The notes under the pieces: model-generated
Seen by the model: the letters and a program-made list of their open reading frames with translations, nothing else
What the model was told of the DNA's origin: nothing
The model's database searches: none
Position numbers and translations under genes: made by a program
Shown here: in pieces, positions 4,683-10,715 of the stretch
Layout: each line of letters opens with the position of its first letter
Numbering within the stretch: position 1 is the stretch's first letter
Virus record (IMG/VR): IMGVR_UViG_2740892219_000011
From: a virus
Lineage: Duplodnaviria; Heunggongvirae; Uroviricota; Caudoviricetes
Length of the DNA: 33,830 bases
Reading direction: 5' to 3' (one strand)

Positions 4683-5102
4683 ATGAACGTCAAAATCCGA
4701 AATGAAATTCAGGCATTAATCCGAATTCAGGAACGCAATAACAACGGTGGTGAATTACGCGAGTTTATTTGCGCCAGGAAAGTTGATGATTGTGGTGAAA
4801 AGACGTACCTGATTGCTTTCGACCATTACAGCATCTGTGCGCGTTATTGCGGCGAAAGCATATCCCGCGCCATTGCATTTGGAGGTGCGTTCAACGTGGA
4901 TTTATGGGAGTACGTCATGGACCGGGAATACATCTGCGCATCAGACCCTGAAGCCCGTGAAATGTGGCAGCGTATCTGGCGCGATTACCGGTTAATGGCA
5001 AAAGGCTGGGCGCGCTGCTGTTATTCCTCGCTTGCCCTGAAAGCGGTTCAGTTATCGCTGCGACATATTCCGGCACCACTGCGCGAGCCTCTGCTGTACT
5101 GA
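4683..5102 (+). CDS. Hypothetical early protein, 139 aa
   Basis: ORF with RBS AAAGGAACG; co-oriented in the early operon. Confidence 0.6.
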   Translation: MNVKIRNEIQALIRIQERNNNGGELREFICARKVDDCGEKTYLIAFDHYSICARYCGESISRAIAFGGAFNVDLWEYVMDREYICASDPEAREMWQRIWRDYRLMAKGWARCCYSSLALKAVQLSLRHIPAPLREPLLY

Positions 5103-5402
5103 ATGGTGGCTGACATGAAGTGTAATCGTAAGCGCTGGTCACGCGAAGACCGGGAATTTATCGAAGCCAACGTCGGGAAAATGACCGTTGAAGAAATGGC
5201 GGAAAAACTGAAAGTCGCCACAACCGCCCTCCGGGCACATGCCAGAAGGCACGGAATATCATTGTGTGTATACCGAATCAGTGAGCACGACAAATATTTG
5301 TGTCGTGAACTTTATAAAGAAGGGCTGGATATTCATGTCATTGCCCGAAAGATGGAATTAAGCAATCGGGCTGTATCCAGCATTGTATACAGCGGATATT
5401 AA
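5103..5402 (+). CDS. Hypothetical early protein, 99 aa, possible helix-turn-helix
   Basis: ATG overlaps the preceding stop (TGAATG). Segment MTVEEMAEKLKVATTALRAHARRHG looks HTH-like. An alternative start at 5115 is possible. Confidence 0.55.
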   Translation: MVADMKCNRKRWSREDREFIEANVGKMTVEEMAEKLKVATTALRAHARRHGISLCVYRISEHDKYLCRELYKEGLDIHVIARKMELSNRAVSSIVYSGY

Positions 5403-6575: not shown

Positions 6576-7105
6576 TGTTTTTTAAAACGTCAAATTCCGC
6601 AGCACTGCTGGCATGGGACCAGTTTATGGCGGACTGCCTGAAACTACGCGAAGAAGCCCGCCATCTTGATAAGGTTCTGGGCTGTGGTTGCCGGTCAGTA
6701 TTCAGCACAGGTATTGGTGGGCGTCATTTTCATGGCGTGAATTTTCCGGGGAATGAGCGCCCCTTCTCGCGGGAGCTGTGGACCGTACAACGGCCCGCAT
6801 CAGGTAACAGTTGCAGGCCCAGAACTTCACGGATACCTGCTCATCTCAGGGAGCAGGCAAGAGAGCTGGCGAAAATATGGCAGGAGAATATTCCGGTCAC
6901 TTACGCCCGCACAGACGCTCTTTTACCCGCACTGGGACTGGATTTCAGCGCAACAATATTCGGGCCGCTCCAGTGGTTCCGTGTTGGTGATGTGATTTAC
7001 GTCATGACGGGGATGACACCCGCACAAGGCCGCATGACTGAAATCCTTTCTGACGAATTTATCCGGGCGCAAAAACAGGCGGAGGTAAACAATGGAAAAC
7101 AATGA
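6575..7105 (+). CDS. Hypothetical early protein, 176 aa
   Basis: Internal ATG at 6575 preceded by AGGAGG and overlapping the upstream stop (GTGATG); the longer ORF from 6536 lacks an RBS. Confidence 0.55.
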   Translation: MFFKTSNSAALLAWDQFMADCLKLREEARHLDKVLGCGCRSVFSTGIGGRHFHGVNFPGNERPFSRELWTVQRPASGNSCRPRTSRIPAHLREQARELAKIWQENIPVTYARTDALLPALGLDFSATIFGPLQWFRVGDVIYVMTGMTPAQGRMTEILSDEFIRAQKQAEVNNGKQ

Positions 7106-7284
7106 AAAACAATGAAACATCGTATTCGTGGCTGGGGAAATTTACCACGGTGAAACAGGAATGCCCGACCTGCGGTAATGAATCTCCTGAATATCTGAAA
7201 GAGTGCCCTCATTGTGGCGGGCAGAAATGCAACCACTGCGATATGGGCGATGACACGGCGTGCATGAATTGTGAAGGTGAATAA
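7102..7284 (+). CDS. Zinc-ribbon protein, 60 aa, four CxxC motifs
   Basis: CPTCG...CPHCGG...CNHCD...CMNCEG. Start overlaps the upstream stop (ATGA) inside a decamer tandem repeat. Confidence 0.6.
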   Translation: MKNNETSYSWLGKFTTVKQECPTCGNESPEYLKECPHCGGQKCNHCDMGDDTACMNCEGE

Positions 7285-7285
7285 T

Positions 7286-7576
7286 ATGAATAATGAAACT
7301 AAATTTACGCCTAAAGACCTGGATGAAGAACTGGTGAAAGCTAAGATGCTTGAGCGTATGCGCGATGTTATTGAGACTGCAATCAGTAAAGGCTTTTCTG
7401 CGAGAGAGGCCCTTGAAATTATGACACGGGAAATTCATCTCATACGCGACGAAGTTTTGTTGCATAACAAAAAAGCCCACAACAATATTGTTTGTCGTGA
7501 GCTTGGCGTTGATGATTCAGCGGTTATTCCACAGCGTCAGTATCTGTGTGCTCTGATGAGAGGTTCCCGGCATTAA
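7286..7576 (+). CDS. Hypothetical early protein, about 96 aa
   Basis: ATG 7286 preceded by GAAGGTGA. Its 3' end overlaps the convergent minus-strand ORF by about 53 nt, so one of the two calls may be wrong. Confidence 0.45.
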   Translation: MNNETKFTPKDLDEELVKAKMLERMRDVIETAISKGFSAREALEIMTREIHLIRDEVLLHNKKAHNNIVCRELGVDDSAVIPQRQYLCALMRGSRH

Positions 7577-7883
7577 CAATATCCTGCCTTGAAGCCCAGA
7601 GCTTATTGAGCAGCAGATCAACATACTCATCGGCCTCAAAATCCAGTTCTTCGAACGTTTTTCGGTTCTTATAGCTGGCCTGTGTATTTCTGATGATGTC
7701 ATAAGCATCGTGCATGTTGATAACACCGTTTTCAATCAGCTTAATCATCAGATTACCGACCAGCATAAAACCGGTTATACCAAAGAATTTATCCTGGTTA
7801 TTAACAGGGGTGTCTTTCTGGTTTGTTTCGAAATCTGGGTTTTGTTCATCATCCGACACCGTATGTTGTTCTTGTTCAGCCAT
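7524..7883 (-). CDS. Reverse-oriented, highly acidic hypothetical protein, 119 aa
   Basis: Minus-strand ORF with RBS AAGGAAAT 5-7 nt upstream of its ATG. Hand count gives about 24 Asp/Glu versus about 9 Lys/Arg; composition is protein-like. It is the only clearly protein-like frame across 7577-7952 and sits in an AT-richer stretch. Confidence 0.55.
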   Translation of the reverse strand: MAEQEQHTVSDDEQNPDFETNQKDTPVNNQDKFFGITGFMLVGNLMIKLIENGVINMHDAYDIIRNTQASYKNRKTFEELDFEADEYVDLLLNKLWASRQDIVNAGNLSSEHTDTDAVE

Positions 7884-7952
7884 AATATTTCCTTTTATGT
7901 TATTACTGAATATGGCGGTGTTGCAGCACCGCCTCTTTCCGGAGGTACGATC

Positions 7953-8504
7953 ATGAGTCGCACATCCCTGATTAAATTAATCCATGTCGCCCGTCGGGAG
8001 CTACAACTCGACGACGACACTTACCGCGCTTTTCTGATGCAGAAAACGGGCAAAATCAGTTGCCGCGAGCTTACGGTTACGCAACTGGAACAGGTGCTCG
8101 ATGCCATGAAAGAACGCGGCTTTAAGAAGCTGAATAAATACCCCCGTCGCCGCTTTAAGGAACATGTCACACCCCGCGAGAAGGTGTATAAAATCTGGCA
8201 GCAGATGGCAGAAGACGGTTTTATTACCGATGGCGGTGATGTGGCGCTGGACAGATATGTTCAACGCCTGACCGCGAAACGCAACGGCGGACAGGGTGTT
8301 TCCACACTGGCGTGGTGTCATGGCGACACGCTGCTGACAGTCCTCGAAACACTCAAACAGTGGCACATCCGCTGTATTCGTGAAGCCTTTTCCCGTCACG
8401 GGCTTCCATTGCCGGTCAGTCCGTCCGGTCGTGAACTGCGCGGCTATGATGCCATGACGGCGGCTTATGCCCATGCCAGAAAGACACAGAGGATGGCACA
8501 ATGA
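7953..8504 (+). CDS. gemA: GemA-like early protein, 183 aa
   Basis: ATG 7953 preceded by GGAGG at 7941-7945; position directly upstream of mor. The long ORF from 7710 is an artefactual upstream extension. Confidence 0.75.
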   Translation: MSRTSLIKLIHVARRELQLDDDTYRAFLMQKTGKISCRELTVTQLEQVLDAMKERGFKKLNKYPRRRFKEHVTPREKVYKIWQQMAEDGFITDGGDVALDRYVQRLTAKRNGGQGVSTLAWCHGDTLLTVLETLKQWHIRCIREAFSRHGLPLPVSPSGRELRGYDAMTAAYAHARKTQRMAQ

Positions 8505-8890
8505 CGGAAGATTTATTTGGTGATTTGCAGGATGACACCATCCTGGCACATCTTGACAATCCCGCAGAGGATACGTCACGCTTTCCGGCACTGCTGGCGG
8601 AGCTGAACGATTTACTACGCGGGGAATTGTCCCGACTGGGTGTTGATCCTGCCCATTCACTGGAGATTGTTGTGGCTATCTGTAAGCATCTGGGCGGCGG
8701 TCAGGTCTACATTCCACGCGGTCAGGTTCTGGACTCGCTGATTCGGGATTTGCGTATCTGGAATGATTTTAACGGTCGCAACGTCAGCGAACTGACCACC
8801 CGTTATGGTGTCACTTTCAATACGGTTTACAAGGCCATTCGCCGGATGCGACGGCTGAAATACCGCCAGTACCAGCCCTCACTTCTGTAA
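8501..8890 (+). CDS. mor: Mor middle-operon transcriptional activator, 129 aa
   Basis: Paralogous to the downstream C ORF (LGGGQVYIPRG / FNGRNVSELTTRYG versus LGGRQFYIPCG / FNGRNMEELRRQYR); last gene of the early operon, followed by a terminator. Confidence 0.9.
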   Translation: MTEDLFGDLQDDTILAHLDNPAEDTSRFPALLAELNDLLRGELSRLGVDPAHSLEIVVAICKHLGGGQVYIPRGQVLDSLIRDLRIWNDFNGRNVSELTTRYGVTFNTVYKAIRRMRRLKYRQYQPSLL

Positions 8891-8895
8891 ACAGT

Positions 8896-8920
8896 AAAGC
8901 CGGTTAATCCGGCTTTTTTT
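8896..8920 (+). terminator. Intrinsic terminator ending the early transcript
   Basis: Hairpin AAGCCGG-TTAAT-CCGGCTT followed by a 7-T run, immediately after the mor stop. Confidence 0.8.
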
Positions 8921-8967
8921 ACGTCCTCAATATCCTGTGATGAATAACCGTACCGGGGGAAATCATC

Positions 8968-9186
8968 ATGGGTAAAGGCTGGAATGCATCCTTTCATCTT
9001 GGCAGACGTGAGCGGCTGCGTCAGGAGGTTTTGCACCGTGTCGCCGGTGGGCCACGTCCTGCGCCCCGCGACTATACCGGTCATGATGGCACCCACGGCA
9101 GTTATTACATGAAAGGCTGGCAGTCAGTTGATATGCCGGAAATTCTTCATCATTGCCTGCTTTACAGGGAGAAACATTATGTCTGA
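8968..9186 (+). CDS. Hypothetical protein, 72 aa, first ORF of the presumed middle operon
   Basis: ORF with RBS GGGGGAAA. The Mor-dependent middle promoter is expected in the roughly 50 bp between the terminator and this start; not positioned. Confidence 0.45.
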   Translation: MGKGWNASFHLGRRERLRQEVLHRVAGGPRPAPRDYTGHDGTHGSYYMKGWQSVDMPEILHHCLLYREKHYV

Positions 9187-9541
9187 GCGTTCTGCTCGTC
9201 AGTGGCCTGATTTTTTATCGGTGGTGTTACTGGCGCTGTTATTGTGGATAAGTCTGTTTTGTGGCTGGCGCGCGCTGATGTTTTGCTGTGCCTCGGTTTT
9301 CAGTGTTGCTTTATGTGTTGCCGGTGATTGCCTGGATGCGCTGATAATGAGCTGCCGGGTGCCTGAACATTTTGCCCGGTTCGTCTGGCCTCTGACCTGG
9401 CTGGGGAGTCTGTCCGGGCTGGGATTAGCCGTGATGGCCACGTCTCAACTGAAAACGGGTCCTGAGCATGTCATCTGGGCGCTGGCCGGATTGCTGACGT
9501 TCTGGATCTCCTTTCGTTTTCGCGCTCGTCTGTTCGGGTAA
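9179..9541 (+). CDS. Cys-rich integral membrane protein, 120 aa
   Basis: RBS AGGGAGAAA; several hydrophobic helices (VVLLALLLWISLF, LGLAVMA, ALAGLLTFWI). Confidence 0.6.
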   Translation: MSERSARQWPDFLSVVLLALLLWISLFCGWRALMFCCASVFSVALCVAGDCLDALIMSCRVPEHFARFVWPLTWLGSLSGLGLAVMATSQLKTGPEHVIWALAGLLTFWISFRFRARLFG

Positions 9542-9550
9542 AGGGGCACC

Positions 9551-9670
9551 ATGTACAGAAAATTCAGTGATGAATGTTTCGGGCCGTCCACGCTGATTAG
9601 TGCGATAAAAGTGATTGCCCTTGTGGTTCTGATAACCATCAGTGCCGTGGTGTATCTTTCTGTCTGTTAA
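9551..9670 (+). CDS. Small hydrophobic peptide, 39 aa, single predicted TM helix
   Basis: Hand-translated: MYRKFSDECFGPSTLISAIKVIALVVLITISAVVYLSVC, RBS AAGGGG; below the ORF-track size cut-off. Confidence 0.4.
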   Translation: MYRKFSDECFGPSTLISAIKVIALVVLITISAVVYLSVC

Positions 9671-9682
9671 CCGGGGGAAAAT

Positions 9683-10105
9683 ATGCAGCATGATTTATTT
9701 GAACACGATCCGGCAATTCGCCAGTTAATCGGACATATTGATAACATCCCGGCCCCGGAACTGGAATCACGCTGGCCCCGTTCGGTGGTTGATCTGATTG
9801 ATGTTCTGGAAAACGAACTGAAACGCCAGAACGTCAGCAATCCCCGTGAACTTGCCCGTAAACAGGCCGTTGCCCTGTCATGTTTTCTGGGTGGACGGCA
9901 GTTTTACATCCCCTGCGGCGATACGATCCTGACCGCGTTACGCGACGATTTGCTTTACTGCCAGTTTAATGGTCGTAACATGGAAGAACTGCGTCGCCAG
10001 TACCGCCTGTCCCAGCCGCAGATCTACCAGATTATTGCCCGCCAGAGAAAGCTGCATACACGACGTCATCAGCCTGATCTGTTCTCACCTGAAAGCCCAA
10101 AATAA
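9683..10105 (+). CDS. C: C late-gene transcriptional activator (Mor/C family), 140 aa
   Basis: Paralog of mor (shared C-terminal DNA-binding region); located just upstream of the lysis and late genes. Confidence 0.9.
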   Translation: MQHDLFEHDPAIRQLIGHIDNIPAPELESRWPRSVVDLIDVLENELKRQNVSNPRELARKQAVALSCFLGGRQFYIPCGDTILTALRDDLLYCQFNGRNMEELRRQYRLSQPQIYQIIARQRKLHTRRHQPDLFSPESPK

Positions 10106-10126
10106 CCGGCATCCTGCCGGTTATTT
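10104..10126 (+). terminator. Hairpin, probable terminator of the middle transcript
   Basis: AACCGGCA-TCC-TGCCGGTT stem-loop overlapping the C stop, followed by TTATTT (weak U-tract). Confidence 0.5.
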
Positions 10127-10196
10127 CCTGTCACCATAATCCCGCATCTGCCACCTGATTTTTTAGACTGCCATCAGAGCATTTTTTCAGGGAAGC
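10127..10196 (+). promoter_or_regulatory. Candidate C-dependent late promoter upstream of lys
   Basis: Contains CATAATCCCGC...TTTTTT at 10134-10165, similar to motifs upstream of I and of the tape-measure gene. Confidence 0.5.
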
Positions 10197-10715
10197 ATGA
10201 TGGCGGGGATACCAAAAAAACTGAAAGCCACACTGCTGGCTGTAACGATTGCCGGTGGCGGTGTGGGTGGTTATCAGGAAATGACCCGTCAGTCTCTGAT
10301 CCATCTGGAAAATATCGCTTATATGCCTTACCGCGATATTGCCGGTGTGCTTACGGTCTGTGTGGGACATACCGGGCCGGATATCGAAATGCGCCGTTAC
10401 AGCCATGCGGAGTGTATGGCTCTCCTCGACAGTGATTTAAAACCGGTTTATGCGGCAATCGATCGTCTTGTCAGGGTGCCGCTGACGCCATATCAGAAAA
10501 CGGCGCTGGCAACGTTTATTTTCAACACTGGTGTTACCGCATTCAGTAAATCAACGCTGCTGAAAAAACTCAATGCCGGTGATTACGCCGGAGCGCGTGA
10601 CCAGATGGCCCGCTGGGTGTTTGCCGCAGGCCATAAATGGAAAGGACTGATGAACCGTCGCGAAGTGGAAATGGCAATCTGGAATATCAGGGGGGCGGAT
10701 GACCTTCGCAAGTAA
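10197..10715 (+). CDS. lys: Endolysin, T4-lysozyme-like with N-terminal signal-anchor-release (SAR) domain, 172 aa
   Basis: Catalytic spacing E-8aa-D-5aa-T in ENIAYMPYRDIAGVLT; N-terminal weakly hydrophobic Gly/Ala-rich segment KATLLAVTIAGGGVGG typical of SAR endolysins. Confidence 0.85.
   Translation: MMAGIPKKLKATLLAVTIAGGGVGGYQEMTRQSLIHLENIAYMPYRDIAGVLTVCVGHTGPDIEMRRYSHAECMALLDSDLKPVYAAIDRLVRVPLTPYQKTALATFIFNTGVTAFSKSTLLKKLNAGDYAGARDQMARWVFAAGHKWKGLMNRREVEMAIWNIRGADDLRK

Follow-up and report, generated by a model that had tools for sequence, protein, structure and literature searches.

A leftward gene between gp14 and gemA of a D108-type Mu phage: a probable allele of Mu gp15 and candidate accessory gene

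The leftward gene and its terminator

We analysed a 33,830-nt stretch of viral DNA (IMG/VR record IMGVR_UViG_2740892219_000011, hereafter the window) that extends from the repressor gene to the tail-fibre region of a Mu-like phage (window position 7000 corresponds to position 7488 of Escherichia virus Mu_3F6, in which the repressor CDS starts at 489). Positions 7000-8600 are 99.9% identical to Mu_3F6 and 97.4% identical to phage D108, while phage Mu aligns to only 62% of this interval, in two pieces. Given the near-identity to Mu_3F6 and D108 and the partial alignment to Mu, the window comes from a D108-type Muvirus.

The early region of this phage contains a 119-codon reading frame on the minus strand, located between gp14 and gemA and preceded by a Shine-Dalgarno (SD) sequence of its own (Table 1). 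The initial annotation had singled it out as a lone reversed gene with its own ribosome-binding site, and both descriptions hold: in the Mu_3F6 record it is the sole sizeable leftward CDS from ner to the tail-fibre genes, the only other being a call of 46 aa, and the SD sequence lies 6 nt from the ATG. The overlap with a convergent + strand ORF, also pointed out there, is an overlap with gp14, whose final 53 nt are shared with the 3' end of the reverse gene. On the other side of gp14, gp13 (7102-7284, +) encodes a 60-aa protein with four CxxC motifs (a zinc ribbon), and its Pfam matches are all sub-threshold (DnaJ_CXXCXGXG, 1.4e-3; Lar restriction-alleviation, 0.31).

Table 1. Coordinates of features at the gp14-gemA locus and of a second reverse ORF in related prophages.
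Feature	Position	Strand	Remarks
gp14, 96 aa, convergent partner of the reverse gene	7286-7576	+	ORF call
Mosaic cassette (most of gp14, reverse gene and its leader)	7312-7913		Mu and D108-type differ
Candidate intrinsic terminator of the reverse gene	7463-7504	-	Scan, folding, covariation
CDS of the 119-aa protein, putative D108-type allele of Mu gp15	7524-7883	-	ATG start, TAA stop
Shine-Dalgarno sequence AAGGA	7890-7894	-	6 nt 5' of the ATG
G+C-rich dyad/hairpin GGCGGTG-N6-CACCGCC (GGCGGTGTTGCAGCACCGCC)	7914-7933	.	Conserved in all alleles
Shine-Dalgarno sequence of gemA	7941-7945		
Second reverse ORF, gemA-mor (locus L007)	4950-5378	reverse	
Second reverse ORF, gemA-mor (locus L008)	4981-5385	reverse	
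Second reverse ORF, gemA-mor (loci L009/L010)	4964-5386	reverse	

Public records disagree about this locus, since D108 (NC_013594/GQ357916) is annotated with gp14 and not the reverse gene, and Mu_3F6 (LR595867) with the opposite choice. The identical ORF is present in both, unannotated in D108 and listed as a 'hypothetical protein' in Mu_3F6, and it also occurs in one of 5426 complete E. coli genomes. This protein is the founding member of phrog_38610. With it as the single query, a word-indexed search recovered one cluster only; exhaustive HMMER searching contributed five further small proteins that are true homologues and one false positive due to composition, and together with a profile search it yielded about 15 homologue clusters of 80-119 aa at 36-64% identity, from Mu-like prophages of E. 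coli, Klebsiella, Citrobacter and Salmonella. On the sequences collected, the gene belongs to a small family that is restricted to transposable Mu-like phages and prophages in Enterobacteriaceae. We rejected one apparent member, P0003, a 606-aa Sushi/CCP-repeat protein whose match (E 3e-11, in seven stretches) is a compositional or repeat artefact ('ENGIVN...').

At every locus examined, the homologue is reversed and lies between a gp14-like gene of 96-101 aa and gemA, with its 3' end overlapping the gp14-like gene convergently by 39-71 nt. A purine-rich SD sequence is found at equal distance from the start in all alleles (AAGGAA, AGAGGA, AAGGAG, GGAGA or AGAGGAA). The coding sequence gives a dN/dS of 0.37 against the closest homologue (E. 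coli, 64% identical) and of 0.17-0.20 against Klebsiella homologues, values to be read with synonymous sites near or at saturation across the comparisons. Substitutions in the core of the protein fall 13/10/21 on the three codon positions, an excess at the third, while those in the N-terminal tail fall 9/9/10 and show no bias. These patterns indicate that the reverse gene is under purifying selection.

Downstream of the reverse gene, a scan of the minus strand identified a hairpin that begins 20 nt past the stop codon and lies inside gp14, at about codons 63-73. It consists of a 13-bp stem closed by a 6-nt loop (7504-7473) and followed by UUUUGUUAUG (7472-7463), with a folding energy of -18.8 kcal/mol and a z score of -2.9. 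The hairpin and its T tail are in register in 12 of 12 alleles inspected, including the nucleotide-unrelated cassette of Mu. When ten alleles were aligned without gaps, 92% of the cells were paired, compared with 31-53% in slid controls; compensatory changes affect five of the 13 pairs, and none of 500 shuffles reached the observed covariation score. The structure also has a direction: 120 of 130 positions pair on the strand of the reverse gene versus 105 of 130 on the early strand (G·U pairs), and the T tract is found on the reverse-gene strand only. An Rfam search of window positions 7000-8600 returned nothing near a gathering score. The conserved pairing, the covariation and the strand bias make a good case that the reverse gene has an intrinsic terminator dedicated to it, and hence that it is a self-contained leftward unit.

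We considered whether 7524-7883 might be a spurious antisense frame and no gene at all. No promoter was found for it (see below), the D108 records leave it unannotated, and long spurious frames do occur nearby; in fact, minus-strand ORFs of 112 and 219 aa adjoin it, so that the length of the frame is not in itself evidence of a gene. What raises this ORF above chance is the combination of a dN/dS well below 1, a third-position excess in the core, strict synteny maintained down to 36-64% identity in the E. coli, Klebsiella, Citrobacter and Salmonella relatives, and a terminator that covaries. In addition, the SD sequence is conserved, and the 376-nt gap between gp14 and gemA holds no alternative + strand ORF to fill it. 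We therefore give a spurious frame next to no probability and regard 7524-7883 as a genuine protein-coding gene.

Relation to Mu gp15 and distribution of the cassette

Mu and SfMu are annotated with a leftward gene, gp15 (Mup15, 88 aa), in the same slot and likewise overlapping gp14. Mu gp15 (NP_050619.1; phrog_8747) is uncharacterised; like the gene in the window it is reversed between gp14 and gemA, overlaps gp14 convergently (by 62 nt in Mu and 53 nt in the window), and is accompanied by the conserved upstream hairpin and by a downstream terminator hairpin with a T tail. At the nucleotide level, in contrast, the two cassettes are unrelated. Homology between Mu and the window breaks off at 7311, shortly after the start of gp14, and picks up again at 7914; the gp14 proteins encoded by the two phages are 36% identical.

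Pairwise BLASTP between the window protein and Mu gp15 gave no significant similarity, although both proteins match phrog_32893. Mu gp15 was of no use as a query for building a profile, since it found relatives at 94% identity or above only; the comparison of profiles needed intermediate alleles, of a 79-aa type and a diverged 88-aa type, which came from the IMG/VR census upstream of gemA. The D108-type family profile matched the single Mu gp15 sequence at 69% (E 4.6e-5); once the intermediates were included, an hhalign comparison of the D108-type family with the Mu-type group gave a probability of 95.2% (E 2.8e-8) over 41 columns. The homology is confined to an N-terminal core of two helices, and the C-terminal halves fail to align. 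The window protein further differs from Mu gp15 in having a 28-residue acidic N-terminal extension and an acidic C-terminal tail, which leave it with a net charge of -15 versus -1 for Mu gp15.

We conclude that the 119-aa gene is the D108-type allele of Mu gp15. The initial annotation had allowed that a known Mu/D108 early gene on the opposite strand might explain the locus; a homologous early gene does exist, as just described, but it is encoded on the same (minus) strand. That the frame is a real gene and that it is an allele of Mu gp15 are, taken together, conclusions in which we place high confidence. The remaining relatives, in phrog_38610 and among unnamed 'hypothetical proteins' of 80-91 aa (P0002, P0007-P0012 and P0014), are 36-64% identical to the window protein, have identical synteny, and share with it the motif FDIAGFLLxGNxMxKLVEKGVIDMxDA...LW. 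P0002 and P0007-P0012 lack the N-terminal extension and are near neutral, the E. coli protein P0014 being the exception. We also considered whether the type of gp15 allele is tied to the immunity type of the phage and rejected this idea, as SfMu has a different repressor yet carries a Mu-type gp15.

The gp14-gp15 segment (7286-7883) has a G+C content of about 42%, whereas the window as a whole has 52% and the flanking genes gp11, gp12, gemA and mor have 52-54%. A census of the slot in 63 GemA-anchored viral loci from IMG/VR shows how closely its two genes are associated. Wherever the full-length reverse gene is present, gp14 accompanies it (19 of 19 loci) and the allele types of the two match; gp15 alone was never encountered, and one locus combines gp14 with a gp15 fragment. 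An unrelated reverse ORF of 134-138 aa (MKIDYDE...; weak DUF2513 match, E 0.017) is found in 11 of the 63 loci, and the rest have neither gp14-gp15 nor this ORF. The unrelated ORF lies about 30 nt upstream of gemA (L026-L028, L042, L043, L045, L046, L048, L049, L054 and L068). The census suggests that the site ahead of gemA acts as a hot spot for accessory genes in leftward orientation. The convergent gp14-gp15 pair itself moves between phages as a single cassette.

The reverse gene has been lost from phages that grow. In vB_YpM_3, a plaque-forming Yersinia Muvirus, a clean deletion flanked by short TGAT repeats (L005 1600-1613) has removed the SD sequence and the 5' two-thirds of a Mu-type gp15, leaving gp14 intact and the upstream dyad in place. 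Similar degenerate remnants of gp15, again with gp14 and the dyad kept, are seen at L030 and L044. Both vB_YpM_3 and PhiR68_1 grow without the gene and have gemA-mor. Because it has been cleanly deleted in a phage that forms plaques, the reverse gene is dispensable for plaque formation.

The close association of the two genes might point to a two-gene module, in which gp14 and gp15 bind or antagonise one another, or in which their overlapping transcripts regulate each other; gp15 could, for example, be a prophage-state inhibitor that is removed once Pe fires. Such a module would account for the perfect co-occurrence and matched allele types, for the parallel divergence between Mu and D108 (gp14 at 36% identity, gp15 recognisable by profile only), and for the conservation of both the convergent 39-71-nt overlap and the placement of the gp15 terminator within gp14 codons in all alleles. 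However, the overlap alone forces the genes to be inherited together, and the strict co-occurrence with gp14 may simply reflect this physical overlap. Moreover, vB_YpM_3 forms plaques with an intact gp14 and without gp15, so that lytic growth does not depend on gp15 to counteract gp14. We consider a module of this kind unlikely.

The predicted protein and the DNA-mimic reading

AlphaFold, run with the family alignment, predicts a helical core at residues 29-105 (helices 29-51, 57-73, 75-79 and 84-105) with disordered acidic tails at residues 1-28 and 106-119. Confidence in this model is moderate, with a mean pLDDT of 61 and values of about 80-85 in the first two helices; an 84-aa Klebsiella homologue is predicted to have the same topology, with a mean pLDDT of 70. 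A transmembrane protein can be set aside, as the Kyte-Doolittle maximum (window of 19) is only 1.3-1.5 and the most hydrophobic helix has charged residues within it (K and E, besides N). The model thus describes a small and probably soluble helical protein, with a core of about 75 aa and disordered tails.

Searches for relatives outside the family gave few leads. Foldseek found no match with E < 0.3 in PDB or BFVD, a sequence-profile search of PDB gave nothing below E 0.06, NCBIfam and PADLOC returned no match for the 119-aa protein, and a Pfam scan extended to E 1 produced only a sub-threshold match to CARD. Two Mu-type relatives match the SHOCT-like family (PF22746) below threshold, scoring 16 and 17.5 bits over 17-18 residues where the gathering cut-off is 27; the window protein itself gives no match to PF22746, and we treat this resemblance as a lead only.

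The acidity of the protein had led the initial annotation to propose a DNA mimic of the Ocr/ArdA type, that is, a protein whose acidic surface imitates B-DNA and titrates type I restriction-modification, BREX or similar systems. The composition on which this proposal was based is correct: the protein contains 24 Asp and Glu and 9 Lys and Arg, exactly as counted by hand, and has a pI of 4.28. With a net charge of -15 and an Ocr-like size, and with its gene in a variable accessory slot of the phage, it is easy to see why the proposal was attractive. The distribution of the charge, however, does not bear it out. The two tails that are predicted to be disordered account for 11 of the 15 net negative charges (-7 in residues 1-30 and -4 in residues 106-119), and the 75-residue core carries only -4. 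The Asp/Glu-rich termini noted in the initial annotation are therefore present, but they belong to predicted disordered segments, and the N-terminal one shows no codon-position bias in its substitutions and is non-acidic in the closest homologue. Net charges among the other homologues range from 0 to -7, and strongly acidic tails seem, from the alleles compared, to be peculiar to this one.

Thus, the window allele, but not its family, shares small size and low pI with Ocr (T7 gp0.3) and ArdA, and the likeness goes no further. Neither Pfam, NCBIfam nor PADLOC connects the protein with an anti-restriction or defence family, and the fold searches revealed no similarity to Ocr, ArdA or any other DNA mimic. 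The orientation of the gene also speaks against this function, because an anti-restriction protein is required when the DNA enters the cell and would be expected within the early transcript rather than against it. These computational comparisons largely refute the DNA-mimic reading, which we now regard as very improbable, and they remove a tempting but unsupported anti-restriction annotation from this gene.

The upstream dyad and models for expression

Between the leader of the reverse gene and the SD sequence of gemA lies a G+C-rich dyad (Table 1), which marks the right boundary of the cassette, the point at which homology between Mu and D108 resumes. It folds at -14.6 and -16.7 kcal/mol on the two strands, and at L020/L021 a compensatory change of two pairs (GGCGGCT...AGCCGCC) preserves the symmetry. 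At L007 and L009 its score is that of an intrinsic terminator of the early strand, placed immediately ahead of gemA. The hairpin of Mu and D108 is followed on this strand by a poor T tract (TCTTTCC). The dyad could attenuate or terminate early-strand transcription, form a stem at the 5' end of the reverse mRNA, or serve as a binding site for a protein. Inspection by hand for a sigma-54 promoter or a Mor/C-type activator site at the dyad gave a misfit in spacing. A consensus scan of the minus strand from 7000 to 10500 found no sigma-70 promoter, and a relaxed search for -10 and -35 elements in 11 alleles detected, in seven of them, a weak -10-like hexamer (4/6) beside the hairpin, without a -35.

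These features can be accommodated by a device that operates at the level of RNA or transcription, in which leftward transcription from 7883 to 7463, together with the hairpin at 7914-7933, gates read-through into gemA-mor and the peptide is secondary; a device of this type would time the early-to-middle switch. The presence of the dyad in all alleles, its early-strand terminator score before the gemA SD sequence at L007 and L009, and a convergent geometry with about 100 nt of RNA overlap with the gp14 mRNA are in keeping with this idea. On the other hand, purifying selection on the core of the protein is seen between highly diverged DNAs whose synonymous sites are saturated, the SD sequence and ATG are conserved, and the early-strand hairpin of Mu and D108 is followed by the poor T tract mentioned above. 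The growth of vB_YpM_3 and PhiR68_1, which keep gemA-mor without the gene, also argues against a gating role. We judge such a device to be distinctly improbable.

Phage morons are independent promoter-gene-terminator units that have been inserted between phage genes, as exemplified by HK97 gp15 and lambda rexAB/sieB. The gene in the window resembles them in being a single-gene unit with a terminator of its own and a deviant G+C content, in its presence/absence and allele polymorphism between near-identical phages, and in the lytic growth of phages that lack it. It departs from typical morons in overlapping its neighbour and in occupying one fixed slot across the whole phage group, and no sigma-70 consensus match corresponds to the promoter that a moron carries.

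On balance, and with modest confidence, we favour the view that the reverse gene encodes a moron-like accessory protein, small and helical, that is produced from a leftward unit apart from the early operon and probably in the lysogen. The gene forms a unit of its own, with SD sequence and terminator, lodged between gp14 and gemA. Since its direction is opposite to that of the Pe transcript and it has a terminator to itself, it could be expressed independently of the early operon; in other words, both its orientation and its terminator fit an expression that is uncoupled from early transcription. The most plausible setting for this would be the lysogen, with Pe under repression. Once the prophage is induced, head-on early transcription and pairing of the 3' 100 nt or so of the reverse transcript with gp14 mRNA may shut the gene off. 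As a moron-like accessory, its product would act by binding to other proteins, and would be neither an enzyme nor a DNA mimic. A search of the accessible literature (for Mu gp15, the semi-essential region, Mu prophage RNA-seq, the gem operon and genes of opposite orientation) found no transcript, protein or phenotype data for gp15.

A bolder proposal, and in our estimation an unlikely one, is that the gp14-gp15 cassette and the dyad constitute an unrecognised lysogeny-coupled module of Mu-like phages. If this were so, a fast-evolving helical protein would be made only while Pe is silent and would be turned off upon induction, when early transcription runs into it head-on. It could represent a new prophage-encoded exclusion, defence or host-modulating factor or, alternatively, a safety catch that holds back an early function, for example gp14 or GemA, and the slot before gemA would be a general hot spot for reverse accessory genes.

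Public records already contained this exact protein, labelled hypothetical, and Mu has an annotated gene in the slot; the homology to Mu gp15, the covarying terminator hidden within gp14 and the hot-spot census are mildly new. Mu is a paradigm phage, and gp15, the one gene of its early region that runs the wrong way, has never been assigned a function. The gene is thus a concrete and cheap experimental target in the study of possible prophage-state functions in transposable phages.

Distant Mu-like prophages contain a second reverse ORF, of 134-142 aa and without a Pfam assignment, which is located between gemA and mor (Table 1).
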